From NCBI GenBank assembly GCA_963664325.2, contig CAXXDQ010000005.1, forward strand, positions 32,001-96,000: 64,000 nucleotides of DNA, in the 5' to 3' direction. Each line of letters starts with the position of its first letter. The first letter of the stretch is position 1. The translations under genes were made by a program, and so were the position numbers. Shown one piece after another: positions 2,128-15,725 of this stretch. Origin of the DNA: Desulfomonilia bacterium. GTDB taxonomy: Bacteria > Desulfobacterota > Desulfomonilia > UBA1062. The notes beneath the pieces were generated by a model, which had not been told where the DNA came from, ran no database searches, and saw nothing but the letters and a program-made list of their open reading frames with translations.

Positions 2128-2158
2128 TTGACATATGCAATCCATAAGGATTATTAAT
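2128..2158 (+). promoter_or_regulatory. sigma70-type promoter of the CrtI/GRE operon
   Basis: Perfect TTGACA at 2128-2133, followed 17-18 nt later by AT-rich TTATTAAT (2151-2158). Confidence 0.6.
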
Positions 2159-2163
2159 GGCAA

Positions 2164-2176
2164 CTGGTAATACCAG
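2164..2176. promoter_or_regulatory. FadR/GntR-family operator
   Basis: Palindrome CTGGT-AAT-ACCAG matches the TGGT-N3-ACCA box of FadR-subfamily regulators (PdhR/LldR type). It lies just downstream of the promoter, and a FadR-type gene is in the operon. Confidence 0.7.
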
Positions 2177-2211
2177 ATGCCATCATATCATAAATTATAA
2201 AGGAGAAGATT

Positions 2212-3714
2212 ATGTCGGATTTTAATGTCATTGTTATCGGAGCAGGCTGCGGAGGGCTTTCGGCTGCGGCGCAGCTTGCAAAAAACGGGCGAAAGGTGCT
2301 TGTCCTCGAGCAGGCTGAAAGGATCGGGGGCTGCTGTTCAACCTACGAGCAGAACGGCTTCAAGTTCGACATAGGCGCATCCATAGTCGAAGCGCCGGAC
2401 CTGCTTAACCGCGTTTTCGCCAAGCTTGGGACCACCCTGGAAAAAGAGGTCGACCTTATCGATTGCGATCCCATCTATACCGTGATCCTGCGAGACGGCA
2501 GCCGCATCACCATCCCGAAGTCGATTGCCGGAACGGAAGAGGCGATCAAGGCTGTCGAGCCTGCGGATGTCGAGGGGTGGAGGAAATATTCGAAGCTGAT
2601 GGACGATTTCAGCGGCACGCTGAACGACTTCTTTACGGAACCGGCGATGTCGCTCTCTGACATGGCCAAGATCGTGAAGGGTTCGCCCGCAATGCTCAAA
2701 TACGGCTCTCTTTTCGCTTCCAGCTATCAGGACGTCTTCAACAAATACTTCAAAAATGAAAATATAAAGGAATCCCTCGCATACCAGACATTTTTCATCG
2801 GGCTGCCGCCTGAACTTGCGCCCGGCATATTCGCTGTCATCCCCTATCAGGAGCATTTCGGCCTCTATTATGTCAGGGGCGGAATGATCGGCATCCCGGA
2901 GGCATTGAGACGGTGCGGGGAAAAGTCCGGCATGGAATTGAGGCTTAAAACAAAGGTTAAAAAAATTATCATCAGAAATAAACGCGCCGTCGGAGTGAAA
3001 CTGGAAGACGGCACCGAGATATCCGCAGATGTTGTGGTATCCGATATAAACGCGAAGACGCTCTATCTGGACATGATCGGCGAAGAGCATCTTCCCTGGC
3101 TGGCCCGCATAGGGGTCAAGAGCTATGAGACCACCATTGCCGTGCCGATGCTCTATGTGGGCGTTGACTACAAGCCGCCGCTCAATTCCCACCACACCCT
3201 TGTGACGGTGCCCATGGAGGAGATGAACGATTTCTGGTGGAGCGATTACCGCACCGGCGGGTTCACGAAGCGCCAGTTCGCCATCATAAGCTGGACCTCC
3301 CAGTCCGACCCGAAGCTGGCGCCCAAGGGCAAGCATGTACTGATCTTTACTCTGCCGCCGTCGCTCAGGACCTGCGGCCAGAAGACATGGGACGAGGCAA
3401 AGCCCGAGATGATCGAAAAATACATCGACTACTATTCAAAGAATTACGTGCCCGGCCTGAAAGAGCACGTCCAGGTGGCCGAACTCGCCACTCCGATTGA
3501 TTTCGAGCGCAGGCTCGGAACCCCGGATGGAGGCATCTACGGGCTCAAGCAGGACATGGCGCATGAGACCATTTTCCGCCCGGCCGCCAAATCCAAGTCG
3601 CTCGAAGGGCTTTACCTGGTCGGCGCATCCACCCACCCGGGCGGCGGCGTTCCCACGACGATGGTGTCCGGAATAGTGGCTACAAACCTGATTGAAAAAT
3701 ATGAGAAAAAATAG
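2212..3714 (+). CDS. Phytoene desaturase (CrtI)-family FAD-dependent oxidoreductase, paralogue 1
   Basis: N-terminal GAGCGG Rossmann motif, GGCCST...FDIGAS, C-terminal GLYLVGASTHPGGGVP; RBS AAGGAG. Confidence 0.88.
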   Translation: MSDFNVIVIGAGCGGLSAAAQLAKNGRKVLVLEQAERIGGCCSTYEQNGFKFDIGASIVEAPDLLNRVFAKLGTTLEKEVDLIDCDPIYTVILRDGSRITIPKSIAGTEEAIKAVEPADVEGWRKYSKLMDDFSGTLNDFFTEPAMSLSDMAKIVKGSPAMLKYGSLFASSYQDVFNKYFKNENIKESLAYQTFFIGLPPELAPGIFAVIPYQEHFGLYYVRGGMIGIPEALRRCGEKSGMELRLKTKVKKIIIRNKRAVGVKLEDGTEISADVVVSDINAKTLYLDMIGEEHLPWLARIGVKSYETTIAVPMLYVGVDYKPPLNSHHTLVTVPMEEMNDFWWSDYRTGGFTKRQFAIISWTSQSDPKLAPKGKHVLIFTLPPSLRTCGQKTWDEAKPEMIEKYIDYYSKNYVPGLKEHVQVAELATPIDFERRLGTPDGGIYGLKQDMAHETIFRPAAKSKSLEGLYLVGASTHPGGGVPTTMVSGIVATNLIEKYEKK

Positions 3715-3783
3715 TGATGAATGGCCAATGGTGAGTGAAAAGCTGAAAAAAATGAAACTCTATTATAAAAAGGAGATAGAATA

Positions 3784-3918
3784 ATGAAAAAGATAATATG
3801 TTTGGGAGTCATAGGTGCATGCGCATACTGCTATACAAAGCTCACGGATTCAAAGAAGCGCTTCATCAAGGAATTCGCCAGGCAGATACCATACCTTGTA
3901 CCGCGCTATTTCGTATAA
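3784..3918 (+). CDS. Small 44-aa protein (MKKIICLGVIGACAYCYTKLTDSKKRFIKEFARQIPYLVPRYFV)
   Basis: AAGGAG RBS at ~3770-3775, ATG 3784, TAA 3916-3918, 12 nt before the next start. Hydrophobic N-terminus followed by a basic amphipathic segment. Below the ORF-track cutoff. Confidence 0.7.
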   Translation: MKKIICLGVIGACAYCYTKLTDSKKRFIKEFARQIPYLVPRYFV

Positions 3919-3930
3919 GGGCGGCTCATC

Positions 3931-5430
3931 ATGGCTGACTATGATGTAATCGTAATAGGCGCCGGCAACGGAGGGGTCTCCTCGGGCGCACTGCTCGCCA
4001 AACAGGGCCGCAAGGTCCTGCTCCTCGAACAGAGCTCCGCCGTCGGCGGGTGCTGTTCGACATTCGAGAAGGACGGCTACAAGTTCGATGTCGGGGCCTC
4101 GATTGTGGAGGTGATAAAGCCTATTGAAATGGCGTTTGCCAAGCTCGGCACCACATTTGCCAAAGAGGTCGACCTCATAGAATGCGACCCGGTCATGACC
4201 ATCATCGACCGTGACGGCAGCCGCATCACGTACCCGAAATCAATCGATGCCACGGCACAGGCCATTTCGGCCATATCGCCCTCGGACGGCAAACGCTGGT
4301 ACGAGTTCGTAAAGGTAATGAGCGAATTTACCGATGTGGCGCTGAATGCATTCTTCCCGGAGCCTGCCGACTCCCTGGCCGATGTCGCGAAGATGTTTGC
4401 GAAAAACCCGAAATTCCTGAAGTTCCTGCCGCTCTTTGTAAAAAGCTACCAGGATGTCATGGAGAAATACTTCAAGGATGAGCGGATCCTCAAGACCATG
4501 GGCTACCAGTCGCTCTATTTCGGGCACCCGCCCGCAATAATTCCGGGCATGTTCGCGCTCATCCCCTATACCGAGCATATGGGGGTCTATTACCCCAGGG
4601 GCGGCATGATACAGATACCCGAAGCCTTCAGGCGCTGCGGCGAGAAGCTCGGCATGCAGGTGAGGTTCAACACCCTTGTAAAGAAGGTCATGGTAAGAGA
4701 CGGCAGGGTCCAGGGAGTCATCCTTGCAGACGGCACCGAGATAACCTCGAAAATTGTGGTGTCGAACATCAACGCCAGAACGCTCTATCTCGACCTGATC
4801 GGAGAAGAAAACCTGCCATGCATGGTGAGAACGGGAATTAAGAGCTACAAGTATTCCAAGGGCGTACCCATGATTTATGTGGGGCTCGACTATACGCCGC
4901 CGCTTGATTCACATCACAGCCTGATTGCCGTAACACCTCAGGGCGTCAACGACTACTGGTTCAATAATGTGGAAAAGGGGATACTGCCCGAGAACAACTT
5001 CGGCCTCATCTGCTGGCCGACGCATGCGGACAAATCTCTTGCACCGGCGGGCCATCATGTGCTCAACCTCATTCCGGAAGGGTTTTACCGCCTTGAGGGT
5101 ACGAACTGGGACGAGGAAAAGCCGCGCTTCATCGAGCGCACACTAAAGGCCCTGGACAAATTTGCGATACCCGGGCTGATGGATCACATCAAGGTGCTGG
5201 AATGCACGTCGCCGCTCGATTTCGAGCGCAGGCTCCTTCTGCCCGAGGGTTCGATCTATGCCCTTCAGCAGGACCTGGCGGCGGCCGCGGTTTTCAGGCC
5301 CAATGCCCGCTCAAGGGCGGTAAAGGGGCTTTATCTGACAGGCTCGTCAACTCACCCCGGCGGCGGCGTTCCCACTACAATCGCTTCGGGCTATATTGCA
5401 TCTAATATGATAGAGAAATACGAACAGTAA
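3931..5430 (+). CDS. Phytoene desaturase (CrtI)-family FAD-dependent oxidoreductase, paralogue 2
   Basis: GAGNGG motif, LYLTGSSTHPGGGVP; collinear with 2212-3714 over the full length. Confidence 0.88.
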   Translation: MADYDVIVIGAGNGGVSSGALLAKQGRKVLLLEQSSAVGGCCSTFEKDGYKFDVGASIVEVIKPIEMAFAKLGTTFAKEVDLIECDPVMTIIDRDGSRITYPKSIDATAQAISAISPSDGKRWYEFVKVMSEFTDVALNAFFPEPADSLADVAKMFAKNPKFLKFLPLFVKSYQDVMEKYFKDERILKTMGYQSLYFGHPPAIIPGMFALIPYTEHMGVYYPRGGMIQIPEAFRRCGEKLGMQVRFNTLVKKVMVRDGRVQGVILADGTEITSKIVVSNINARTLYLDLIGEENLPCMVRTGIKSYKYSKGVPMIYVGLDYTPPLDSHHSLIAVTPQGVNDYWFNNVEKGILPENNFGLICWPTHADKSLAPAGHHVLNLIPEGFYRLEGTNWDEEKPRFIERTLKALDKFAIPGLMDHIKVLECTSPLDFERRLLLPEGSIYALQQDLAAAAVFRPNARSRAVKGLYLTGSSTHPGGGVPTTIASGYIASNMIEKYEQ

Positions 5431-5438
5431 GGAAAACA

Positions 5439-6161
5439 ATGAAAGAATTACTCAGACCATTAAAGACCGAAAGCCTCAAGGAGGTTTTCATTTCACGCTT
5501 CGAAGGGCTGATCCTGTCCGGGAGATTCTCTATCGGACAAAAGCTGCCTTCAGAGCGCGAGCTTGCCCTTCAGCTCGGAGTCAGCCGCCCTGTCGTGCAC
5601 GAGGGTCTTGTCGATCTGGCAACAAAAGGCCTTGTCTCCATGAAACCCAGGGTTGGCGCAGTGGTAAGCGATTACAGGAGAGAGGGTTCGATAACCATAT
5701 TGAACTCTCTTCTCAACTACCATCAGGGCAGACTCAGTCCCGAACTGCTCCAGGGCATGATGGACATGCGCAAGCTCATGGAAATGGAGACTGCGCGTCT
5801 TGCAGCCATCAACAGAAAGGAAGATCATCTTGCCGAATTGAGGGAGCTTGTCAAGGAAGAGGCGCTATTAAATCCAAATGAGATAGACAGGCTGATAGAA
5901 ATGGATTTCAGGTTTCACCATTTGATAGCAATGGCTTCGGGAAATGTGATATATTCTCTTTTCCTAAACTCGCTTAAAGAGGTCTATACGAACCTCTCAA
6001 GTGAATTTTTTGCAGACACAGGCATGGCTCCCGTTGTTTCCGTTTTCCACTCCCGGATGCTGGAAGCGGTGGCAAAAAAAGACGCAAAGAAGTCTATGGC
6101 GATCATGAAACAGATTCTCGATCACGGAGAGGAGCGGCTGAAGGCCGCCCTCAAGATATAA
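5439..6161 (+). CDS. GntR/FadR-family transcriptional regulator
   Basis: KLPSERELALQLGVSRPVVHEGL winged HTH; C-terminal FCD domain (DFRFHHLIAMASGN). Confidence 0.93.
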   Translation: MKELLRPLKTESLKEVFISRFEGLILSGRFSIGQKLPSERELALQLGVSRPVVHEGLVDLATKGLVSMKPRVGAVVSDYRREGSITILNSLLNYHQGRLSPELLQGMMDMRKLMEMETARLAAINRKEDHLAELRELVKEEALLNPNEIDRLIEMDFRFHHLIAMASGNVIYSLFLNSLKEVYTNLSSEFFADTGMAPVVSVFHSRMLEAVAKKDAKKSMAIMKQILDHGEERLKAALKI

Positions 6162-6171
6162 GGAGGCATAT

Positions 6172-8682
6172 ATGGCAGCCGCATCTCTTCAGACAAAATA
6201 CCGTATCAAGGAACCGAAAGGCCTTTCCCCGCGCATCACATGGCTGAGGGATTATTTCTTCAAGGGTGTGAGCAGGGCATGGAACAACGAATATACTGCA
6301 TGGACCATGGGAGAACCCTGGGACGTTCAGTATAACGAGCTGACCTATTACATCGTGCCCGAGACTTACCCGTTCCTGCAGACGTTCCGCGCTTCGCTCA
6401 GTCAGGTCGCAAGAAAGGTCAGGCTGCCTAACGACTTCTGGAAGATGAGCCTGCCCGAACGCAGGGCCTGGTTCAACAGGGAGGTCGTGGTGAACTACCT
6501 GCCCCAGGAGATACTTCCAGGCGACCTTCTTGCCGGTTCCCGGTTCAACATCCACACGTCCATGTGCCTGACCGAGAAGGAGACAAAGGCCCGGGACAAG
6601 AAGATATTCGGCAAGACAGGCGCCCGCGCACGCATGAAGTGGTTCCATGATCACGGCTACGGCAATGCCGGCGCCACCTCCGGACACCTCATCCCCGGCT
6701 ACGAGCGCCTGCTCAAGATCGGCTGGAAAGGCGTTCACGCGGATATAAAGACAAAGTACGACGAGCTTTCGGCAACCGATAAAAAAGGCAAAAAAGGCGC
6801 CCAGCTCAGGGCCATGATTACCGCCTCCACTATGGCGCGCGACCTGGCCGCCAAGTACTCGGCGCTGTGCACCAGGCTTGCCGATGCCGAAAAGGATTTC
6901 ACCCGCAAAAAAGAGCTCAACACCATGGCGCACAACCTCAAGGTCGTGCCGTGGGAGCCGCCGCAGGACTTCTGGCAGGCCCTTCAGGCGCTGTGGCTCA
7001 ACCACATGCTGGTCATGAGCGATGAGAACTACCCCGGGCCCGGCGTTTCCTTCGGCAACTTTGACCGGATACTCGCTCCCTTCTGGGAAAAATCCATAGC
7101 CCAGGGCATGGACCGCGAATTCGGCAAGGAGATCATGAAGTGCATGTGGGTGCATGCCAACACAGCCTACGACGGCATGATACGCACCGGCGGCAACCAG
7201 GGCATAACGGCGGGCTTCGGCCAGCTGCTCACACTCTCAGGCCTCGGCCCTAACGGAAAAGACATGACCAGCGACATCACCTGGGCCGTGCTGGAAGTCA
7301 TAGACGAAATGACGCCCATACTCGAACCAAAACCCAATGTCAGGCTCCACAGGAATACGTCCGAAGAGCTGCTAGACAGGGTCGTCGACATGATCGAGAC
7401 CAGCCAGGGCGCACCGTTCCTGCTCAATTTCGACGAGCGCTCCATGGCCGGCATGATGCTCGAGGGCAAAAAGGCCGGGCTCACGCATCTCATCAATGAA
7501 ACAAACGTCAATGAATACGCGCCGGTCGGCTGCCTTGAAAACACAATGGTCGGCAACGACCGCTCGGGCACGGTCGACAACAACCTCAACCTTTTAAAGG
7601 CGGTCGAACTCGCGCTTACAGGCGGCAAAGACCTGCTCAAGTTCACGGACCCCATAACCATGATAGCCCAGCCTATCACCCAGGACGGGCCCGAGACGCC
7701 TGACCCGCGCACATTCAAGACCTTTGACGAATTCTGGAACTCCTTTGCCGTCCAGATGAAGTACATCGTTGCAAAATGCGTCGAAACATATGAACTCTCC
7801 GAGGAACTTCGAGCGCAGTATAACCCCACACCCTACCTTTCATGCCTGGTCAAGGGCTGCGCCGAAAAAGGCCTCGACATCACGCAGGGCGGCGCAGAGA
7901 TAAACTTCACCACTATCGAGGCCGTCACCTACGCAACGACAGTCGATTCACTCCTGGCCGTCAAATACCTCGTATTCGACAAAAAGGAATGCACCATGGA
8001 CGAACTCGTTAAAGCGCTTAAGGACAACTGGGCCGGCCACGAGGTGCTCCAGGCCAAGGCGAAATTCAAGGCCCCGAAATACGGCCGCGAGGACGACGAG
8101 GCGGACATGATGGCCAAAAAGGTCATGGACCTCTGGTGCGGCGAGACCTGGAAATATAAGACCGCATCGACCAACCGCCAGTTCCGCCCCGGCATGCTGA
8201 GCTGGAATTACTGGGTCGGCGACGGCTATGTCATGGCGGCCAGCGCTGACGGAAGGCCCAAGGGACAGTTCCTCTCCAACGCCATCTGCCCGTCTAACGG
8301 CGCGGACACAAAAGGTCCCACATCAAACACAAACTCCGTCGGCAAGGCGCTCGGCGGCAAAAGCGAAAACGGCGACTGGGAAGACTACCTCAACGCGCTT
8401 CCCAACGGCGCCAGCCATACCATCACCTTCAACCCATCGGTCCTGAAAGACCCCGAACACAAGGCCAAGTTCAAGGCATTCCTGAGGGCCTACGCGGAAA
8501 ACGGCGGGACCGCGCTCCAGATAAACATGCTCGACCCGGATATGCTCAAGGACGCCCAGAAACACCCGCAGGACTACCGCCACCTGCTCGTGCGGGTAAC
8601 AGGCTACAACGCCTACTTCACAAGCATAGGCCGCGAACTCCAGAACGAGGTCATCGAACGCCTGAGCCACTGCAAGTTTTAG
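6172..8682 (+). CDS. Glycyl radical enzyme (PFL-like family), function unknown
   Basis: Cys loop YAPVGCLE, C-terminal glycyl radical motif LLVRVTGYNAYF, APKYGREDDEAD, ASADGR; 836 aa. Confidence 0.93.
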   Translation: MAAASLQTKYRIKEPKGLSPRITWLRDYFFKGVSRAWNNEYTAWTMGEPWDVQYNELTYYIVPETYPFLQTFRASLSQVARKVRLPNDFWKMSLPERRAWFNREVVVNYLPQEILPGDLLAGSRFNIHTSMCLTEKETKARDKKIFGKTGARARMKWFHDHGYGNAGATSGHLIPGYERLLKIGWKGVHADIKTKYDELSATDKKGKKGAQLRAMITASTMARDLAAKYSALCTRLADAEKDFTRKKELNTMAHNLKVVPWEPPQDFWQALQALWLNHMLVMSDENYPGPGVSFGNFDRILAPFWEKSIAQGMDREFGKEIMKCMWVHANTAYDGMIRTGGNQGITAGFGQLLTLSGLGPNGKDMTSDITWAVLEVIDEMTPILEPKPNVRLHRNTSEELLDRVVDMIETSQGAPFLLNFDERSMAGMMLEGKKAGLTHLINETNVNEYAPVGCLENTMVGNDRSGTVDNNLNLLKAVELALTGGKDLLKFTDPITMIAQPITQDGPETPDPRTFKTFDEFWNSFAVQMKYIVAKCVETYELSEELRAQYNPTPYLSCLVKGCAEKGLDITQGGAEINFTTIEAVTYATTVDSLLAVKYLVFDKKECTMDELVKALKDNWAGHEVLQAKAKFKAPKYGREDDEADMMAKKVMDLWCGETWKYKTASTNRQFRPGMLSWNYWVGDGYVMAASADGRPKGQFLSNAICPSNGADTKGPTSNTNSVGKALGGKSENGDWEDYLNALPNGASHTITFNPSVLKDPEHKAKFKAFLRAYAENGGTALQINMLDPDMLKDAQKHPQDYRHLLVRVTGYNAYFTSIGRELQNEVIERLSHCKF

Positions 8683-8707
8683 GAAGAGGCAATGCTGACA
8701 AAAACTC

Positions 8708-8833
8708 CACCTCCCCCAACCCCCTCCTGTCGAGGAGGGGGCTATGCGTTAACAAGAATTCGCACGCTGTGCGAATTCTTGTTAGCCGGTTGCCCTCTTG
8801 CCCTTGAGGGCAAGAGGGGTGGGAGATGGGGTG
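8708..8833. repeat. Composite palindromic REP/REPIN-like element (three hairpins)
   Basis: Hairpins at 8720-8741 (CCCCCTCCT-gtcg-AGGAGGGGG), 8750-8784 (perfect 16-bp stem TAACAAGAATTCGCAC) and 8793-8818 (CCCTCTTGCCC-ttga-GGGCAAGAGGG), enclosed by C-rich/G-rich arms. Confidence 0.8.
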
Positions 8834-8846
8834 CGAGGACTGTATC

Positions 8847-9809
8847 ATGAGTAAGGGAACAGTACTGGAGATTCAGAGGATGTCTACCGAGGACGGGCCC
8901 GGCATCAGGACCACGGTCTTTTTGAAGGGCTGTCCGCTCAAGTGCATATGGTGCCACAACCCCGAGAGCATACTGATGAAGCCGCAGGTTCACTGGATAG
9001 GTTCGCGCTGTATCGGCTGCAATATCTGTATTGATACGTGTCCTGACAAGGCGCTTTCAAGGGGCAAAAAGGGGATAGTGATTGACAGGAATATCTGCAA
9101 AGGCTGCGGGAAATGCGCGGCGGAATGCCCGTCGACGGCCATGGAGCTTCTGGGCCATGAGTGGGATGCGGACAAGCTGGTTGACGAGCTCATAAAGGAC
9201 AGGGCCTTTTTTGAGACATCCGGCGGAGGGGTTACGGTTTCCGGCGGAGAGCCCACCATGCAGGCCGAATTCACGGCAGAGGTGCTTAAGCTGCTCAAGG
9301 GCAAGGGCATTCACACGGCGCTCGATACCTGCGGATTGTGCAGGAGGGAATACCTGGAAGGGCTTTTGCCCCTGGCGGACATGGTCCTTTTTGATCTGAA
9401 GGTCATGGATTCCAAGCTTCACAGGGAATTTACCGGGGCCTCCAATGAGAAGATTCATGAGAACCTGCTCTTCATAAGGGACTGGATGAAGGAAAAGGGC
9501 TCGCCGAAAGAGCTGTGGATAAGGACGCCCATCATTCCGGGTGCGACGGACAACGGGAAGCTGGTTAAGGAGATCGGGAAATATATTGCAGCGAACATAA
9601 ATGATGTTGTCAATCGCTGGGATTTGTGCGCCTTCAACAACCTGTGCAGGGATAAATATACAAGGCTGGGCCTTGACTGGACATACCACGATTCGAAGCC
9701 TCTTAAAAAAGAAACGATGGAGAAGCTTGCGGAGGCTGCAAGGCATTCGGGCGTGAACCCGGAGATAGTCCAGTGGAGCGGCGCGACGCGGCTCGAAGAA
9801 AATGACTAA
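8847..9809 (+). CDS. Glycyl-radical enzyme activating protein (radical SAM, with 2x[4Fe-4S] ferredoxin insert)
   Basis: DGPGIRTTVFLKGCPLKCIWCHNPES, CIGCNICIDTCP and CKGCGKCAAECP, GGVTVSGGEP. Start taken at ATG 8847 because ATG 8826 lies inside the palindrome. Confidence 0.94.
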   Translation: MSKGTVLEIQRMSTEDGPGIRTTVFLKGCPLKCIWCHNPESILMKPQVHWIGSRCIGCNICIDTCPDKALSRGKKGIVIDRNICKGCGKCAAECPSTAMELLGHEWDADKLVDELIKDRAFFETSGGGVTVSGGEPTMQAEFTAEVLKLLKGKGIHTALDTCGLCRREYLEGLLPLADMVLFDLKVMDSKLHREFTGASNEKIHENLLFIRDWMKEKGSPKELWIRTPIIPGATDNGKLVKEIGKYIAANINDVVNRWDLCAFNNLCRDKYTRLGLDWTYHDSKPLKKETMEKLAEAARHSGVNPEIVQWSGATRLEEND

Positions 9810-9838
9810 AATTAAAAAAATATATCAAGTTTTAAACT

Positions 9839-10009
9839 CAGGGCGTCAGAACGATGCAGACCTAGGAGCGACGAAGCGGAAATGCGAGGCATACTTTTGA
9901 CGTATGTCTCTTCGCCTTCGGCTTGAGGTGCGAAACAGGAAGCTCACGATCCCATTTTCGCAGCGTTTTCGCAAGGAGTGACAACGGTATGCGAAGTTAT
10001 CACGCCCTG
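9839..10009 (+). mobile_element. MITE-like element, copy A
   Basis: Terminal inverted repeats CAGGGCGT/ACGCCCTG; the internal ~100 bp recurs inverted at 11000-11174. Confidence 0.65.
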
Positions 10010-10025
10010 TAAGATGGAGGAGAGT

Positions 10026-10865
10026 ATGAGTAAGTTTACATCATTCACAAAGGACGATATGCTGGCTTTCGAACCCGAAGCCAAGCTCGGCTTTATCGCA
10101 ACGGTTACTCCCGAGGGCCTGCCGCATATAACGCTTATAACAGCCATGCGCGCCAAGGACGAGACGCACCTGATGTGGGGGCAGTTCACTGAAGGGTCTT
10201 CCAAGACAAACGTGCTCAGCAATCCCAAAGTAGCATTCGCCATACTCAACCTGGAGAAGAACCTCTGGCGCGGCAAGGCGCTCTATACGCATAACGTGAA
10301 GGAAGGCGAGGACTACGTCCTTTTCAACAACCAGCCCATGTTCAGGTACAATTCATACTTCGGCATACATACCGTCCACTACATGGACCTCGTGGAGACG
10401 GCCGGCAAGGAGCCGCTCAAGCTGCCCGCCATAATAGCGTCATCCCTGATTACCATGATAAAAAGGCCGTTTGCCGCAACCGGCATTAAGGAGCAGATCA
10501 TGAAGCCGTTTGCAGTGGGGCTCTTCAACGGCATGCAGACGCTCAAGTTCATATCCTGGATAGGCACCGACGGCTTCCCGAGACTGACCCCGGTATTGCA
10601 GGCCCAGGCCCCTGACAGCAGAAGGCTCGTCATGGTCCCGCTGGCCTATGGCGATGAGTTGAAGGAAATCCCTGAAGGCGCGGACGTGGCTGTTTACGGC
10701 GCGTCGTTCAGCATGGAGACCTGCCTGGTGCGCGGCAAGTATCACAGAAAGCCCGGCCTGATCCCGACCGTGGAGATAGACCTGAACTGGGTGTATAATT
10801 CGATGCCGCCGAATGCGGGGCAGGTATATCCGGAGATTCCACTACAACCGGTCACGCAGTTCTGA
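10026..10865 (+). CDS. Tandem-domain pyridoxamine 5'-phosphate oxidase (split beta-barrel)-fold protein
   Basis: Two similar halves (KLGFIATVTPEGLPHITLI / KFISWIGTDGFPRLTPV), SKTNVLSNPKVA. RBS GGAGG before ATG 10026. Confidence 0.75.
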   Translation: MSKFTSFTKDDMLAFEPEAKLGFIATVTPEGLPHITLITAMRAKDETHLMWGQFTEGSSKTNVLSNPKVAFAILNLEKNLWRGKALYTHNVKEGEDYVLFNNQPMFRYNSYFGIHTVHYMDLVETAGKEPLKLPAIIASSLITMIKRPFAATGIKEQIMKPFAVGLFNGMQTLKFISWIGTDGFPRLTPVLQAQAPDSRRLVMVPLAYGDELKEIPEGADVAVYGASFSMETCLVRGKYHRKPGLIPTVEIDLNWVYNSMPPNAGQVYPEIPLQPVTQF

Positions 10866-10990
10866 TTCCGCTTCCCATTCAAACGCTTCCGTTGTCGGCT
10901 GCGTCGGAATGCTCCTCGGAGTACATAGATGAGTACACCTCGTCGCTTCCTCCTTGCCTCCTAGCAATCATCTCGAATGGAAAGCGGAAT
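10865..10990. mobile_element. MITE-like element with 16-bp terminal inverted repeats
   Basis: ATTCCGCTTCCCATTC (10865-10880) and GAATGGAAAGCGGAAT (10975-10990), one mismatch; non-coding interior. Confidence 0.65.
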
Positions 10991-10999
10991 TAATATGTT

Positions 11000-11174
11000 G
11001 GGCGTGATAACTTTGATGAGGGTTTTGACGGCCCTCACCCTTCGGGCACGACTACGTCGCGTCAATTTTCGTGATGCGAAAATTTGCATACCGTTCTCGC
11101 TCCTCGCGGAAACGTTGCGAAAATGGGATCGTGAGCTTCATGTTTCGCTCCTCAAGCCGAAGGCGATGAGGCAT
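11000..11174 (-). mobile_element. MITE-like element, copy B (inverted relative to 9839-10009, with internal insertion)
   Basis: The reverse complement shares CGCCTTCGGCTTGAGG..GAAGCTCACGATCCCATTTTCGCA..AACGGTATGC and AAGTTATCACGCCC with copy A, plus ~70 extra nt. Confidence 0.7.
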
Positions 11175-11390
11175 CATCTTGAATGCAGACCGGAATAATA
11201 AATAATTGTGAGCTATATTTTTAAAACTACAATAATTGGAAAAGTACTATATATAAATCAAGTTTGTGAACATAATTCGGATTATTGTTTATCTCAACAT
11301 AGTTTTTATTCATCATAAAATTATTGTAGAAACTATAACATGGTGATTTGTTATTTATATGATTTTGGAAAAAAGGCTAAAAGAGAATTA

Positions 11391-12281
11391 TTAAATTTCA
11401 CTGTTGATATGTATATGTGCAGTGAAAAGAAATCTAAAAGTCTCCAAAAAAATACATAACATAGTAAGACCTATATTAGCACTTGTTGAAAGTGTAAAAA
11501 TACAATCAAAAAATTCATAAATGAACCAGAATGAATAAATTCCCAACCAAATTTTTATAGGATATTGTAAGTAATACAACCAATAAGACCAAGTACGTTT
11601 TCTAAATAATCCATAAGTACCAATAAGTAATAGTGCTAAAAGTATAATAAAAAATATTATCTTCACCGATGTGTTATATAAATCAGATTGATTCTCAGAT
11701 GTTATCAAAACCAGTAAATATACAGAGAAACATATAATATCTAAAATTGACATACTATTAAGATATCTATAAGTATTTCTCTTGACATGACTTCTAATGA
11801 TACCAAATCTTATAAAAAGAAGTATTGGAAGAATTACAGGTAAAGCAATATTTATTACATCTGTTATTCCGATCTTAACCTTCACTGAAACATTACTAGG
11901 TGTTGAAGGTGGTGCGTCTTTAAATGGATATGGGAAATTTATATTTCTTGGTTTTCTATGCTCTATAATTGCTAATTTCTTTTCATATGATCGAATGTCT
12001 TCACTTAATAATTCAAAAGTTTTCTTAATTTGATATTTTTTTAATTCTGATATTTTGTCTTTTTTTGAAATCGTAACATATCTTATACTAAGTTCGTTTA
12101 TTCTATTATATGAATTAAATATTTTATCTCGAAGATCAATTGATTGTTTTTCATGTTCAATATTCAATTTTTCATTTTCTATGATGTTCTGTTTGTATTG
12201 CCAATAGATTCCACCTCCAAATATTGTACCTATAATAAAAGTTAAAATTGGAATGACTAGGTTTAATTTTGTATTCTTCAT
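11391..12281 (-). CDS. Hypothetical membrane protein (AT-rich)
   Basis: Long ORF in a very AT-rich segment; N-terminal TM, coiled-coil region, several C-terminal TMs. Start placed at MKNTK; the upstream TTG lies in a repeat. Confidence 0.65.
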   Translation of the reverse strand: MKNTKLNLVIPILTFIIGTIFGGGIYWQYKQNIIENEKLNIEHEKQSIDLRDKIFNSYNRINELSIRYVTISKKDKISELKKYQIKKTFELLSEDIRSYEKKLAIIEHRKPRNINFPYPFKDAPPSTPSNVSVKVKIGITDVINIALPVILPILLFIRFGIIRSHVKRNTYRYLNSMSILDIICFSVYLLVLITSENQSDLYNTSVKIIFFIILLALLLIGTYGLFRKRTWSYWLYYLQYPIKIWLGIYSFWFIYEFFDCIFTLSTSANIGLTMLCIFLETFRFLFTAHIHINSEI

Positions 12282-12292
12282 CACATCTGTCC

Positions 12293-12370
12293 AAAACAAA
12301 AGGTGTCAGGCCTTGAAATGGGACATAGTGATCAATTTGTCATTGATCAAGGCCAAGCACCTTTTGTTTT
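12293..12370. repeat. REP-like palindrome family copy 1 (GGTGTCAGGCCTTGA...TCAAGGCC)
   Basis: Imperfect hairpin AAAACAAAAGGTG-TCAGGCCTTGA...TCAAGGCCAAG-CACCTTTTGTTTT; the reverse complement aligns with 38716-38786 and 41219-41290. Confidence 0.8.
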
Positions 12371-12752
12371 AATTTGACCGTGCCTTTTTGGCTATTTTCC
12401 AATGTATCAGGAGTGCGATACCACCTGCTAATATGAACATCATTGATTTGACAAAAGTCTGGAAACCTTCTCTTTTCTCACCCTTTAAAGTAATTGCAAG
12501 AGCCTCTTGTCGTTTCTTTGATAGCTCCTCTTCTGATGGTCTTGTAGGTATTACCTTCGTATCACAGTGGCACTGCTTACTTTCCCAGTAACTATCATTG
12601 CTCTGATAAATGTTGTACTCATATGACTTCATAGTTAACGTTGGATTTACAATTTCAATAATACTGTATCCAGCAATACCTATGGATATCACCAAGCAAA
12701 CAACAGCAGCAAAGCAGACTGCAAGAGCATAAATTTCTAGCTTTGATTTCAT
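12369..12752 (-). CDS. Hypothetical two-TM membrane protein
   Basis: 127-aa ORF with RBS AGGAGAAGGA, N- and C-terminal TM helices, ending HWKIAKK. Confidence 0.75.
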   Translation of the reverse strand: MKSKLEIYALAVCFAAVVCLVISIGIAGYSIIEIVNPTLTMKSYEYNIYQSNDSYWESKQCHCDTKVIPTRPSEEELSKKRQEALAITLKGEKREGFQTFVKSMMFILAGGIALLIHWKIAKKARSN

Positions 12753-12887
12753 AGTTCCTTCTCCTTTTTTATTCTTAATGTATGATATTACATGCCGCAG
12801 AAACCAATGAACACCAGTTTAAATTGTATCACTAGCAACATTGTTTATCAAGAATAGGTGTATTGGACGCAAAAATGAAGAAATAAA

Positions 12888-12984: not shown

Positions 12985-15144
12985 TTAGGGAATTGCGACG
13001 ACACGGAAACCGATCGAGTGGTTCCTGTCGCCCGGATTCATGCTGTCTCGCATCGCTGACCACAAACTCCATGTGTTGGCGGCGGGCGTGCACCATGCGC
13101 CTCCACGGAAAATGCGTCCCATATTGTTATAAGGCTCCCAGGAGCTGCCGTCAGTCGGCGCACCTATATAGTTATTGTGCCATGGATCCAGACACCACTC
13201 CTGGACATTGCCGTGCATATCATAGAGACCCCAGGCGTTCGGAAGCTTGGCGTCCACGGGATGAGTCGTGCTGGTCATAAGGTCCTCTCCGTACCAGGCA
13301 TAGTTTATCAGATCGGCAACCGAATCCCCGAAACAGAAGCGTGTCGTGCTGCCGGCCCGGCATGCGTATTCCCACTGCGCCTCGCTCGGCAGGGTGATAG
13401 TCAGGCCCGTTAACGCCGAGAGTTGTATGCAAAAAGACCTGGCTTCATTCCAGGTGACACTATCCACCGGGTTGTTCTCGGTGCCGGGGTAAACAGGCGC
13501 CTTGAAACGAGAGGGATTAACGCCCATGACAGCCGCATATTGTGCCTGGGTAACCTCTGTGGCAGCCATATAAAAACCCGGGAGTGTCACTGCGTGGACC
13601 GGAGTCGTGTAAGACGCAGTCCCATACTGATTGTCCGCGGTTCCCATCATGAACGTGCCTCCGGGTATGTAGACCAAGGAGTTCAATAAATAGACAATCG
13701 GAGCGCTGAAAACTTTTATCACACAGGTATCCGTTGCCTGCAGTCCGCCCGCATCTGTTACAGTCAACTCAAAGGTCAGTATTGATCCTGACGGCACAGT
13801 GGCATTGAATTGCGCTATGGCCGCATCGGGATTGGCAAGAGTTACCGAAGGCCCGCCGGTCTGCACCCATTGATATGAAGCGATTCCATCATCCGGGTCG
13901 GATGAACTTTCACCGTTGAGTGTTACCAGGGCCCCTGCGGATATGGTCTGATCGGGTCCTGCTTGGGCCGTGGGCGGTTCATTTGTCCAGGTTACGTTGA
14001 CAGTACACGTGGCACTCGATTTGAGACCCCCGTTATCGGTCACGGTCAGCTTGAATTTCAAGGCTGCTCCGCCAATACCTACATTGGGGGCCGTAAATAC
14101 AGGCTGCATGGAACTTGCATCGGAGAGGGTGACTGCAGGGCCTTCGGTCTGCTGCCAGTCATAAGAGGCGATGCCGTCATCCGGGTCCGTCGAGCCGGAA
14201 GCATCCAGGGTTACAACGGCAAACTCCGCGACGGTCTGATCAGTTCCGGCATCGGCTGCGGGAGCCGCGTTTATCCAGGTAACATTGATTATGCATTGCG
14301 CCGAAGACTTCAGGCCGCCATTATCCGTCACGGTCAGCTCAAAAGTAAGAGCAGCACCGGCGGGGCCTACATCCGGGGTTGTAAAGAAGGCCTGTATGGT
14401 ATCTGCATTAGTCAACAAGACCGTGGGCCCGCTGATTTGCTCCCACTCATATTGTGCGATGCCGTCATCAGGATCTGTCGAGCCGGACCCATCGAGGGTC
14501 ACCAGCATACCCTCCGCAACTGTCTGGTCCGGTCCTGCGACGGCTGTCGGAGGTTCGTTTGTCCATGTGACGTTAACGATGCATGAGGTTCTCGACGTCA
14601 GCCCTTTGCTGTCCGTCACTGTGAGTTCAAAAGTCAATGCTTCGCCTCCCTGATTCACTTCCGGTGACTGGAACGTGGTTGTAATCCCATTGGGATCCGA
14701 CAGCACGACTTGTGTGCCTCCGGTCTGTTCCCAGGCATACGAAATAATGTCGTTGTCAGGGTCGGTTGAATTGGATGCATCAAGGCTCACTAATACTTTT
14801 TCCGCCACTGTCTGGTCAGGTCCGGTATGTGCGACGGGCGGGCTGTTGTTGGTTTGGATAGTCCATGTCTGCGTATCCGTCCCGAGGGCATGGGTTACCT
14901 TGACCGTGAGGACGTGTTCACCTGCTGTGGCGGTGTAAACATACGACTCCAGCGAATTTGGAAGGGGTGCTTCGTCCAGGGTCCAGGCAAAGGTTCCGCC
15001 TGTGGGCAATATTTCAACACTGAAAGTCATCTGCTGGCCGAAATCCATAGCGACATTATCAGTGTTTGGTGACTTGGACAGGATGCAACCGCTCAATATG
15101 GCTGTAATAAAAAGCACGACAAGAATTGATAATGATCTTTTCAT
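12985..15144 (-). CDS. Lipoprotein with four PKD/Ig-like repeats and C-terminal FGE-sulfatase (SUMF1/C-lectin-fold) domain
   Basis: Lipobox LSGC after MKRSLSILVVLFITAI; four repeats N-x-PPxAxAGxDQTV...LDxSxSxDPD...WxQxxG...FELTVTD; FGE motifs GGTFMMG, TEVTQAQY, LPSEAQWEYACRAG, NAWGLYDMHGNVQEW, RGGAW, IGFRVV. Confidence 0.88.
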   Translation of the reverse strand: MKRSLSILVVLFITAILSGCILSKSPNTDNVAMDFGQQMTFSVEILPTGGTFAWTLDEAPLPNSLESYVYTATAGEHVLTVKVTHALGTDTQTWTIQTNNSPPVAHTGPDQTVAEKVLVSLDASNSTDPDNDIISYAWEQTGGTQVVLSDPNGITTTFQSPEVNQGGEALTFELTVTDSKGLTSRTSCIVNVTWTNEPPTAVAGPDQTVAEGMLVTLDGSGSTDPDDGIAQYEWEQISGPTVLLTNADTIQAFFTTPDVGPAGAALTFELTVTDNGGLKSSAQCIINVTWINAAPAADAGTDQTVAEFAVVTLDASGSTDPDDGIASYDWQQTEGPAVTLSDASSMQPVFTAPNVGIGGAALKFKLTVTDNGGLKSSATCTVNVTWTNEPPTAQAGPDQTISAGALVTLNGESSSDPDDGIASYQWVQTGGPSVTLANPDAAIAQFNATVPSGSILTFELTVTDAGGLQATDTCVIKVFSAPIVYLLNSLVYIPGGTFMMGTADNQYGTASYTTPVHAVTLPGFYMAATEVTQAQYAAVMGVNPSRFKAPVYPGTENNPVDSVTWNEARSFCIQLSALTGLTITLPSEAQWEYACRAGSTTRFCFGDSVADLINYAWYGEDLMTSTTHPVDAKLPNAWGLYDMHGNVQEWCLDPWHNNYIGAPTDGSSWEPYNNMGRIFRGGAWCTPAANTWSLWSAMRDSMNPGDRNHSIGFRVVAIP
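13715..14850 (-). repeat. Four intragenic tandem repeats of ~288 bp (PKD-like domains)
   Basis: Protein-level repeats of ~96 aa, with DNA similarity at the same period. Confidence 0.85.
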
Positions 15145-15725
15145 TGTAACCCTCCCCAAATAATTCTTAATTTTATATTTCAATAATCCAAATATAATAC
15201 CAATAAACTCCCTAAATTAATAGCATTATATTGTGGTTTGACGGAAACAGGGGGTTCGGGCCTAATCGGTCTGTTGCCATGATCAATTTTGGGGAATCAC
15301 AGATTACAGATTCACGGAGAGTCTGGTCAGACTTGGACATGTCTTAAAACAATATTCTGAAATATGCACATCAAAGTTTAAGAAAGTAACCGGAAATCAT
15401 GGGATCAAATGATATCCCATTTGATTCTTCCGGAATTGCCGGCATTGCGTTTGCGAGCTTCATTAAAGAAAAACAGGAGGACACGCTGATAGACAATTAA
15501 CTTACTTTTCTTTGAGTATCTGTAATCTCTCCGGATATGCCTTTTTCAACATAAAACTCCTGCTGTAAAGCAGAAGAGGATTATGCTAATTCATTATATG
15601 ACGGTCAAGGTTCACGGGCGGCTTTCATGGTCTTTCTTCATGCCGTTATGTGCATAGGCATGATTGCGGCAGGCGGTTGAACTTTAATGTGTCATAATCG
15701 AAGTAACAGACAGAGGAGGATAAAA

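Follow-up and report, generated by a model that had tools for sequence, protein, structure and literature searches.

A widespread, uncharacterised glycyl radical enzyme module with a tandem split-barrel partner, and its lineage-restricted link to CrtI-like genes in a Desulfomonilia bacterium

Glycyl radical enzymes (GREs) perform chemically hard anaerobic reactions. In a 64,000-nucleotide stretch of DNA from a Desulfomonilia bacterium (the window, with coordinates counted from its first letter), one such enzyme is encoded in a cluster of seven genes, together with two flavoenzymes of the CrtI family, a 44-residue open reading frame (ORF), a FadR-type regulator, a radical SAM activase and a protein with a tandem PNPOx fold, and the question that this locus raises is which of these genes belong to the GRE and what kind of substrate they serve. 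An initial annotation had taken the CrtI-like enzymes as its defining partners. Here, we compared the cluster with related loci (L numbers) and with other genomes (G numbers, G000 being the window's own genome; C numbers are contigs). Regulator, GRE, activase and tandem split-barrel protein make up a genuine, new module with clear boundaries, of a system type already known, and within one bacterial family the CrtI-like and micropeptide genes form a co-regulated accessory branch, which stands in the operon only in the window's genus. The best explanation for the whole locus, a widespread uncharacterised GRE module with its repressor and operator, a split-barrel partner and an accessory crt regulon, is in our estimate somewhat better than an even bet (about 0.55).

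All seven ORFs of 2212-10865 lie on the + strand, and the ORF list, Pfam and NCBIfam bear out the single co-oriented cluster described earlier. The GRE (6172-8682, + strand, 836 aa), with His172, Cys454, Glu456 and Gly811 as key residues, shows the superfamily's defining features, i.e. a PFL-like barrel (Pfam PF02901, 402 bits) with its catalytic Cys loop, and a cognate activase encoded next to it. The loop, VGCLEN (452-457), has a single Cys (Cys454), and RVTGY (808-812, with Gly811) agrees with the superfamily glycyl radical motif RVxG[FWY] within a Gly_radical domain that scores 80 bits against a cut-off of 22.2. The enzyme falls far below all seven curated NCBIfam equivalogs (HypD, HpfG, HpsG, CutC, PFL, IAD and HPAD), its scores being, in descending order, 373, 363, 336, 290, 273, 225 and 173 bits against cut-offs of 1000-1150; among the best, HpfG gives 373 against 1000, HypD 363 against 1100 and CutC 290 against 1050. 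For the PFL2/glycerol dehydratase subfamily TIGR01774 it reaches 399.9 of the 678.2 bits required, in a match that starts only at residue 168, and the closest solved structure is HypD (292 bits, residues 170-831). Identity to the best 120 database homologues is 71-96% over 99-100% of the length, and these carry only automatic 'PFL family' or 'HypD' labels. In 35 aligned members, columns average 81% identity, His172 is invariant, and so is C454-L-E456, the CXE loop (35/35). Judged from its sequence, this is an uncharacterised, strongly conserved family, which agrees with the earlier view that the GRE belongs to no characterised one.

The unusual N-terminus that had been pointed out was borne out in part. 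The sequence is diverged (WNNEYTAW stands at residue 37), and the first ~165 residues are too diverged for alignment with Pfam or paralogues; His172 aligns with His164 of glycerol dehydratase, so the N-terminus is of canonical length and has no extension. No paper on this GRE family was found in the literature searched, although supplementary similarity-network tables could name it. A search pairing glycyl radical enzyme with phytoene desaturase returned no paper, literature on glycyl radical enzymes in Smithella with pyruvate formate lyase held none on this family, and the portion of the Hxd3 literature covered with GRE terms yielded nothing relevant.

The CXE loop is a hallmark of GRE eliminases and isomerases according to sections 5.6 and 5.7 of a 2026 review, and no such enzyme as the one described here is among the eliminases and isomerases of those sections (PMC13450708). 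HypD (PDB 6vxc) shares with the window GRE the PFL-like barrel, the Gly loop, a GCxE Cys loop and the His172-equivalent His, and differs in that the first ~165 residues of the window GRE do not align with it, and in having no PNPOx-fold partner. Glycerol dehydratase (PDB 1r8w) has His164, Cys433 and Glu435 at the places of His172, Cys454 and Glu456, and shares the CXE eliminase architecture, as do HpfG/HpsG. In HMMER alignments, positions polar in HypD or in glycerol dehydratase become Pro290-Gly291 and Trp678, while His172, Gln343 and Glu456 are retained. HypD chain residues Asp298, Ser354 and Thr665, which we take to be Asp278, Ser334 and Thr645 in the enzyme's familiar numbering, align with Pro290, Gln343 and Trp678, and His281-Ser282 of glycerol dehydratase with Pro290-Gly291; the Asp447 region of the latter aligns with Val468/Asp469 in an uncertain register. 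By analogy, the reaction is probably of eliminase or isomerase type, and its substrate a hydroxylated compound that has a carboxylate group or gives rise to one.

The partners of the enzyme were sought in a scan of one genome per species, which gave 305 GRE relatives; the best 80 were used as loci and searched by tblastn with the window's proteins, each denominator given below being the loci with enough flank. They come from metagenome-assembled genomes labelled Smithella/Syntrophaceae, Desulfobacterales, Spirochaetes/Leptospirales, Bacteroidetes, Bacteriovoracaceae, Myxococcales and Poribacteria. Orthologues of the GRE span at least six NCBI-labelled phyla, with identities of 69-96%. The PNPOx-fold gene lies 3' of the GRE in 55/55 loci, the activase gene follows directly in 65/67, and the regulator gene stands ahead in 45/68. 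In ORF clustering of the 80 loci plus the window, no other gene family occurs in more than eight sources; the recurring family F8 is just a generic ABC ATPase. Within the window's order (52 genomes, one family, 14 genera), a GRE orthologue is present in 48/52 genomes and in 33 of the 34 of high quality, the PNPOx-fold protein in 47/52, and both in 45/52. Neither is found in G017 (78% complete) or G039 (100% complete), the latter being the only complete genome short of one, and it is short of both; the five genomes with just one of the two are incomplete, or the locus in them is cut off by the end of a contig. The 55/55 linkage, together with co-presence in the order, indicates that the invariant partner of the GRE is the tandem PNPOx-fold protein, and not the CrtI-like enzymes.

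Two observations on these loci stand apart. In L003 and L006, the exceptions to activase placement, the PNPOx-fold gene comes directly after the GRE, and no activase gene lies between or after within reach. Public labels also conflict within one GTDB-based family ('Bacteriovoracaceae' for L046/G006, 'Syntrophaceae' for L067/G023), which makes the lineage taxonomy in record titles unreliable.

The activase itself (8826-9809, + strand, 327 aa) is a GRE-activating radical SAM enzyme with a ferredoxin-like insert and passes TIGR02494 (311.5 bits against a cut-off of 174). The ORF of the PNPOx-fold protein is open from GTG 9978, and its start is most likely ATG 10026, since GGAGG lies upstream and homologues begin at the equivalent place, which gives 279 aa (10026-10865, + strand). 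Pfam PNPOx_N matches at 35 bits (cut-off 28.1), and the tandem fold that had been proposed is seen as two barrels in an AlphaFold2 model built on 39 homologues (mean predicted local distance difference test score 88.9), with fold searches in agreement and Foldseek E-values reaching 1e-7. By Foldseek and VIA-align, the N-terminal barrel (~1-134) resembles HupZ, small FMN-binding proteins and F420 reductases (VIA-align Z up to 14.7 for HupZ, root-mean-square deviation 3.2 over 120 residues), and the C-terminal barrel (~158-280) resembles KtzT and a general-stress FMN/FAD protein (Z 9.1-9.6). The family profile run against PDB sequences matched only HupZ and Rv2991, weakly (E 0.004-0.03), and an ESM Atlas query with the homologue P0168 returned only unnamed or PNPOx clusters. 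The protein is probably flavin-dependent, and the 34 invariant columns of the family, many of them polar (H35, S60, K61, R108, Y109, N110, Q193, R237, N259), look more like those of an enzyme or a specific partner than of a loose electron carrier. The gene is single-copy in G000 despite about seven other GRE paralogues there, and is therefore no general GRE helper. A PNPOx-like protein to which no role is assigned, LssP, is reported in the limonenylsuccinate synthase operon (PMC12583861), the one relevant case met in the searched literature on such proteins in GRE gene clusters; by description, it resembles the window protein in its family and in its place in a GRE operon, and its GRE, a fumarate-adding X-succinate synthase, is unlike ours.

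The GRE paralogues of G000 (4.3 Mb) all score below every curated equivalog cut-off. They lie on C7 (76135-78006, 85782-87677, 238800-240689 and 867387-869429), C4 (42001-43845) and C3 (409087-410811 and 415820-417229), and three of the approximately seven have an adjacent activase homologue. One 1113-aa open frame in this genome joins activase-like and GRE-like parts, with a TAG flagged within the stretch.

The module carries its own regulator (5439-6161, + strand, 240 aa), a GntR-family protein of the FadR/FCD subfamily, in which the Pfam domains GntR (59.7 bits), FCD (69.4) and FadR_C (63.8) all score above cut-offs, and the E. coli-type FadR equivalogs of NCBIfam are not reached (83 and 81 bits against 189 or 249). 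Residues D156, H160, H204 and H229 (D-x3-H...H...H), which we take to be the FCD-domain metal site, are invariant in 40/40 regulators; characterised FCD members sense small carboxylates. In 42/45 loci, the 150 bp ahead of the regulator gene contain the box TGGTN3ACCA, mostly 27-58 nt before the start, a frequency far above chance for a background of 0.054 per kb. Directly before the window's regulator gene there is no box, as the gap is just 8 nt; it stands instead 47 nt ahead of the start of crtA, the first gene of the cluster. This predicted operator of the FCD/FadR-type regulator, CTGGTAATACCAG (2164-2176, strandless, with the core TGGTAATACCA at 2165-2175), is a perfect palindrome at the site named in the initial annotation. 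It begins 7 nt past the TATTAA of a putative sigma-70-type promoter (2128-2157, + strand), which is readable, as had also been said, from TTGACA (2128-2133), an 18-nt spacer and TATTAA (2152-2157), and which a consensus scan left unlisted because its rule demands T at the last -10 position (position 6).

Downstream of the operator lie crtA (2212-3714, + strand), encoding a CrtI-family FAD oxidoreductase of 500 aa, the micropeptide gene (3784-3918, + strand) and crtB (3931-5430, + strand), encoding a 499-aa paralogue 54% identical to crtA, with gaps of 69, 12, 8 and 10 nt from crtA through peptide, crtB and regulator to GRE. Both CrtI-like proteins pass TIGR02734 (crtA 314.2 and crtB 304.1 bits, cut-off 238.1) and match NAD_binding_8, and they are far below the cut-offs of carotenoid equivalog models (e.g. 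CrtID, 243 against 640 bits). The best solved relative of crtA is CrtI of Pantoea (PDB 4dgk, 178 bits, full-length alignment); unlike the CrtI setting, there are no other carotenoid genes nearby, and the host is an anaerobe rich in GREs. CtmAB (limonene dehydrogenase) and the delta-24 steroid desaturase are, like crtA/crtB, encoded by two adjacent COG1233 (phytoene-desaturase-like) genes in anaerobes, where they act on isoprenoid chains, and CtmAB is partnered by a 2Fe-2S ferredoxin and a reductase, according to the parts of the two reports covered here (PMC4109377, PMC11061730). A paralogous crt cluster on C4 of G000 has an FNR/2Fe-2S reductase, as CtmAB has its reductase. Identity between the subunits of those enzymes is only 26-27%, a micropeptide is not among the components described in the parts covered, and their covalent-flavin His motif, G-F-[LR]-x-[NS]-[TL]-H-A (PMC11061730), is replaced in crtA (GFKFDIGA) and crtB (GYKFDVGA), with Gly in place of His.

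The 44-aa ORF is, by its conservation, a real gene and a conserved partner of this CrtI subfamily, encoding a predicted membrane micropeptide. There are 16 homologous ORFs (two in G000, one of them the window's own), each with a hydrophobic helix and the tail (D/E)SKKRF...Q.PYL.(P/G)RY(F/Y)(V/A), which upholds the earlier call of a micropeptide gene. Among 49 metagenome loci found with crtA, 16 have a close homologue (at least 49% identity), and in 12 of those 16 a homologue of the 44-aa ORF comes right after a crt gene. Two metagenome contigs (L091 and L092) bear three to four tandem CrtI-like paralogues interspersed with micropeptide genes, an arrangement that suggests repeated duplication of the crt-peptide unit.

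Within this bacterial family, the crt units share the operator of the GRE module. In the window's genus (g1), G000, G007 and G009 have one tight cluster behind one operator, G008 has it across a contig break, and the layout and the box before crtA are conserved in all three genus-mates. TGGTA[AT]TACCA occurs at three sites in the 4.3-Mb genome, and two of the three lie 35-47 nt upstream of crt-type genes; the third perfect site (C8:351501) stands in a stretch without a long ORF. The second crt-associated site, TGGTATTACCA at C7:972351, lies 35 nt upstream of a third crt-peptide unit (C7:970667-972316), which is unlinked to the GRE module, and the window's regulator is the sole member of its subfamily in G000. 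In another genus, G023 has crtA-peptide-crtB on a separate contig behind GGTGGTAATACCACC, and its single subfamily regulator, which is GRE-linked, stands behind GCTGGTAATACCACC; the 15-mer of the crt operon equals the GRE-linked operator at 14/15 positions. The layout of L097 is as in G023, with crtA-peptide-crtB behind an operator. G006 carries operator-crtA-peptide-fadR'-MFS and, separately, operator-fadR-GRE, and G003 (= L004) has an operator, a crt remnant of ~200 nt, an intact peptide gene, a second operator, fadR and the GRE. The remnant, at 5190-5610 of L004 (= G003:C20), keeps N-terminal, middle and C-terminal pieces, out of frame. The same operator before crt/micropeptide units in four genera, and before the unlinked paralogue in G000, points to a regulatory link that is accessory and lineage-restricted; membership of the crt units in the regulon is deduced from the position and exact sequence of the sites. 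The single operon of the window looks like two neighbouring, like-regulated operons that merged, and the backbone of a FadR tree does not resolve crt insertion from fusion of two operons.

As gene linkage, the association with CrtI-like genes is thin. Close crtA homologues are present in 11/52 genomes of the order (7/14 genera), and at least 37 of the 48 GRE-bearing genomes are without one. CrtI-like genes (at least 50% coverage) are found within 10 kb of the GRE in 4 of 66 loci and are not in reach in the other 62; in the four (L033, L052, L060 and L068) they are distant paralogues, 26-28% identical, lying 6-9.5 kb from the GRE together with FNR/2Fe-2S reductase and beta-oxidation genes. From the crt side, the GRE is absent from all 49 crtA metagenome loci, and the regulator occurs in just one of them, L087, which is closely related to the window; L097, whose crt genes are 84-88% identical, has no GRE within 10 kb. 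Co-occurrence of CrtI-like genes with GRE homologues in other genomes, whose absence the initial annotation had itself named beforehand as grounds for refutation, therefore largely fails, and with it the notion of defining partners. What stands of the GRE-CrtI link is the shared operator within the family, even where the genes are unlinked; a conserved partnership does not.

We propose the following working order for the module. A carboxylate-bearing effector would release the FCD/FadR-type repressor from the TGGTN3ACCA operator, the activase would install the glycyl radical on Gly811, and a thiyl radical would abstract a hydrogen next to the substrate hydroxyl. With Glu456 deprotonating this hydroxyl, cleavage of an adjacent leaving group or ring bond would give a carbonyl product. 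The split-barrel protein, specific to this GRE, would be a flavin enzyme acting on the product, or a dedicated subunit or redox partner. In genus g1, the crt/micropeptide/crt unit lies between the operator and the repressor gene, so that one transcript and one switch may serve both; elsewhere in the family, unlinked crt units carry the same operator and may therefore be accessory members of one regulon.

The substrate class is hinted at by neighbouring genes, which point weakly to a hydroxylated lipid-like or isoprenoid acid. Some GRE loci have thiolase, acyl-CoA dehydrogenase, enoyl-CoA hydratase and FNR/2Fe-2S reductase genes nearby, and other neighbours include acyl-CoA ligase (five loci), aldehyde:ferredoxin oxidoreductase (four), acyltransferase (four) and a sulfatase with a ~190-aa protein (three). 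On C4 of G000, an orthologous sulfatase (66-67% identical) and a 199-aa protein (48-52%) lie beside another crt-crt-FNR cluster. An LPAAT-like acyltransferase gene is directly downstream of the operator-bearing crt-peptide unit on C7, and related ones (38-42% identical) adjoin the PNPOx-fold gene in L022, L058 and L064 and crt-peptide-fadR' in G006. Of the hydrophobic, lipid-like substrate envisaged earlier, a faint lipid theme in the neighbourhoods survives, and an obligatory isoprenoid/sterol pathway with CrtI does not.

Several points weigh against this account of a module with an accessory regulon and a lipid-like substrate. Substrate, cofactor and interactions are all predicted, with the chemistry read by motif analogy, and the substrate-binding residues of HypD and glycerol dehydratase are replaced, so that the leaving-group chemistry may differ. 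TGGTN3ACCA is a generic half-site pattern of this regulator subfamily, and the regulator is missing in 23/68 loci. Near-universality in one family fits a core metabolic role as well as a catabolic niche pathway, and no conserved transporter was seen at the GRE loci. Each kind of lipid-flavoured neighbour occurs in just 3-8 of the 80 loci, which are partly syntenic kin, and the neighbours in Smithella loci are housekeeping genes (PrmA, RNA methyltransferase, RDD protein).

It is conceivable, if on balance unlikely, that the substrate of the module is instead a small polar compound of central or fermentative metabolism, for instance a hydroxy acid or a diol, and that the CrtI link is incidental, arising from similar operators of related regulators and chance adjacency. 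The invariant D/H/H/H set of a regulator whose characterised kin sense small carboxylates is what such a module would have, as are its self-contained nature, its near-universal presence in a whole bacterial family and its mostly unrelated housekeeping neighbours. All characterised CXE GREs in the review sections covered use small polar substrates (PMC13450708). Chance is harder to reconcile with the exact operator variant that stands promoter-proximally, 35-86 nt before crt units, in four genera, or with G023, where just one subfamily regulator is available to bind the crt operator. Further, polar positions of HypD are Pro290 and Trp678 in the window GRE, and the orthologous sulfatase/~190-aa pair that lies beside the GRE module in other phyla lies beside a crt cluster in G000.

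More specific, and more doubtful, is the proposal of a new two-component radical system, made up of the GRE and the tandem split-barrel protein, with an undescribed reaction on a hydrophobic hydroxylated carboxylate, the crt/micropeptide products being membrane-bound accessory desaturases or saturases of the regulon. An example would be the dehydration of long-chain or isoprenoid acids that bear a vicinal diol or an ether, or the cleavage of their C-O bonds, such acids coming from plant or membrane lipids.

We find it improbable that the module is anabolic, building or remodelling a membrane lipid feature in anoxia, with the crt/micropeptide unit and an acyltransferase modifying the same lipid. 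Its core-gene-like distribution in the family, the acyltransferases on C7 and in L022, L058, L064 and G006, and a micropeptide that resembles a membrane anchor helix would suit it; a repressor-operator pair is found more often with inducible catabolic functions, and acyltransferase adjacency is confined to few loci. To our knowledge, no lipid biosynthetic step uses a GRE. Largely refuted, and as poor a prospect, is an obligatory pathway in which the GRE and two CrtI-like flavoenzymes act on an isoprenoid or sterol, radical dehydration or cleavage being coupled to C=C reduction or isomerisation: the tight genus g1 cluster, operators before unlinked crt units in three further genera, the four loci with distant CrtI-like genes and the role of two-gene COG1233 enzymes in anaerobic isoprenoid catabolism, as far as covered (PMC4109377, PMC11061730), speak for it, and the counts above, together with a crt gene in G003 that has decayed beside an intact GRE module, speak against it.

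A few features of the surrounding DNA complete the description of the locus. The 143-nt gap between GRE and activase (8683-8825) holds three consecutive hairpins (8706-8822, + strand), which include the inverted repeat I2. The PNPOx-fold gene is flanked by the arms of a 95-nt inverted repeat, 88% complementary (left arm 9904-9998, right arm 11080-11174, both strandless), a copy of a genome-dispersed repeat, and the unusually long gaps beside this gene (9810-10013 and 10866-11200) are short-repeat copies found on many contigs at 85-95% identity. Directly downstream of the operon, an AT-rich island (11000-12800, GC content 0.28-0.34 against ~0.55 around) may be foreign DNA; its two ORFs, of 302 aa (a weak MscS_TM match) and 127 aa, are without family matches. 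Some 2 kb off the operon, a 732-aa protein (12985-15183, - strand) has four PKD-like domains and a C-terminal FGE-sulfatase (formylglycine-generating enzyme-like) domain, and may be of interest, since in other phyla the GRE module is flanked by sulfatase genes. A penicillin-amidase gene (1-1905, - strand) was ruled out as a member of the system, being missing upstream in G007, G009 and all 80 loci.

Taken together, the GRE family is a well-defined target, with strong conservation, a fixed partner protein and a repressor whose readable operator could serve to fish for the inducer. A fixed PNPOx-fold partner is not seen in the characterised GRE systems of the review sections considered (PMC13450708), and identifying the substrate of this enzyme would enlarge the repertoire of GREs by one reaction and perhaps by a new kind of accessory protein. 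If the GRE and the split-barrel protein do act as a two-component system on hydrophobic hydroxylated acids, such compounds would be opened to anaerobic beta-oxidation in bacteria of peat, wetland and sediment. Finding the substrate would also explain a gene set that is common in anoxic-habitat Smithella/Syntrophaceae, Desulfobacterales, Spirochaetota and Bacteroidota.

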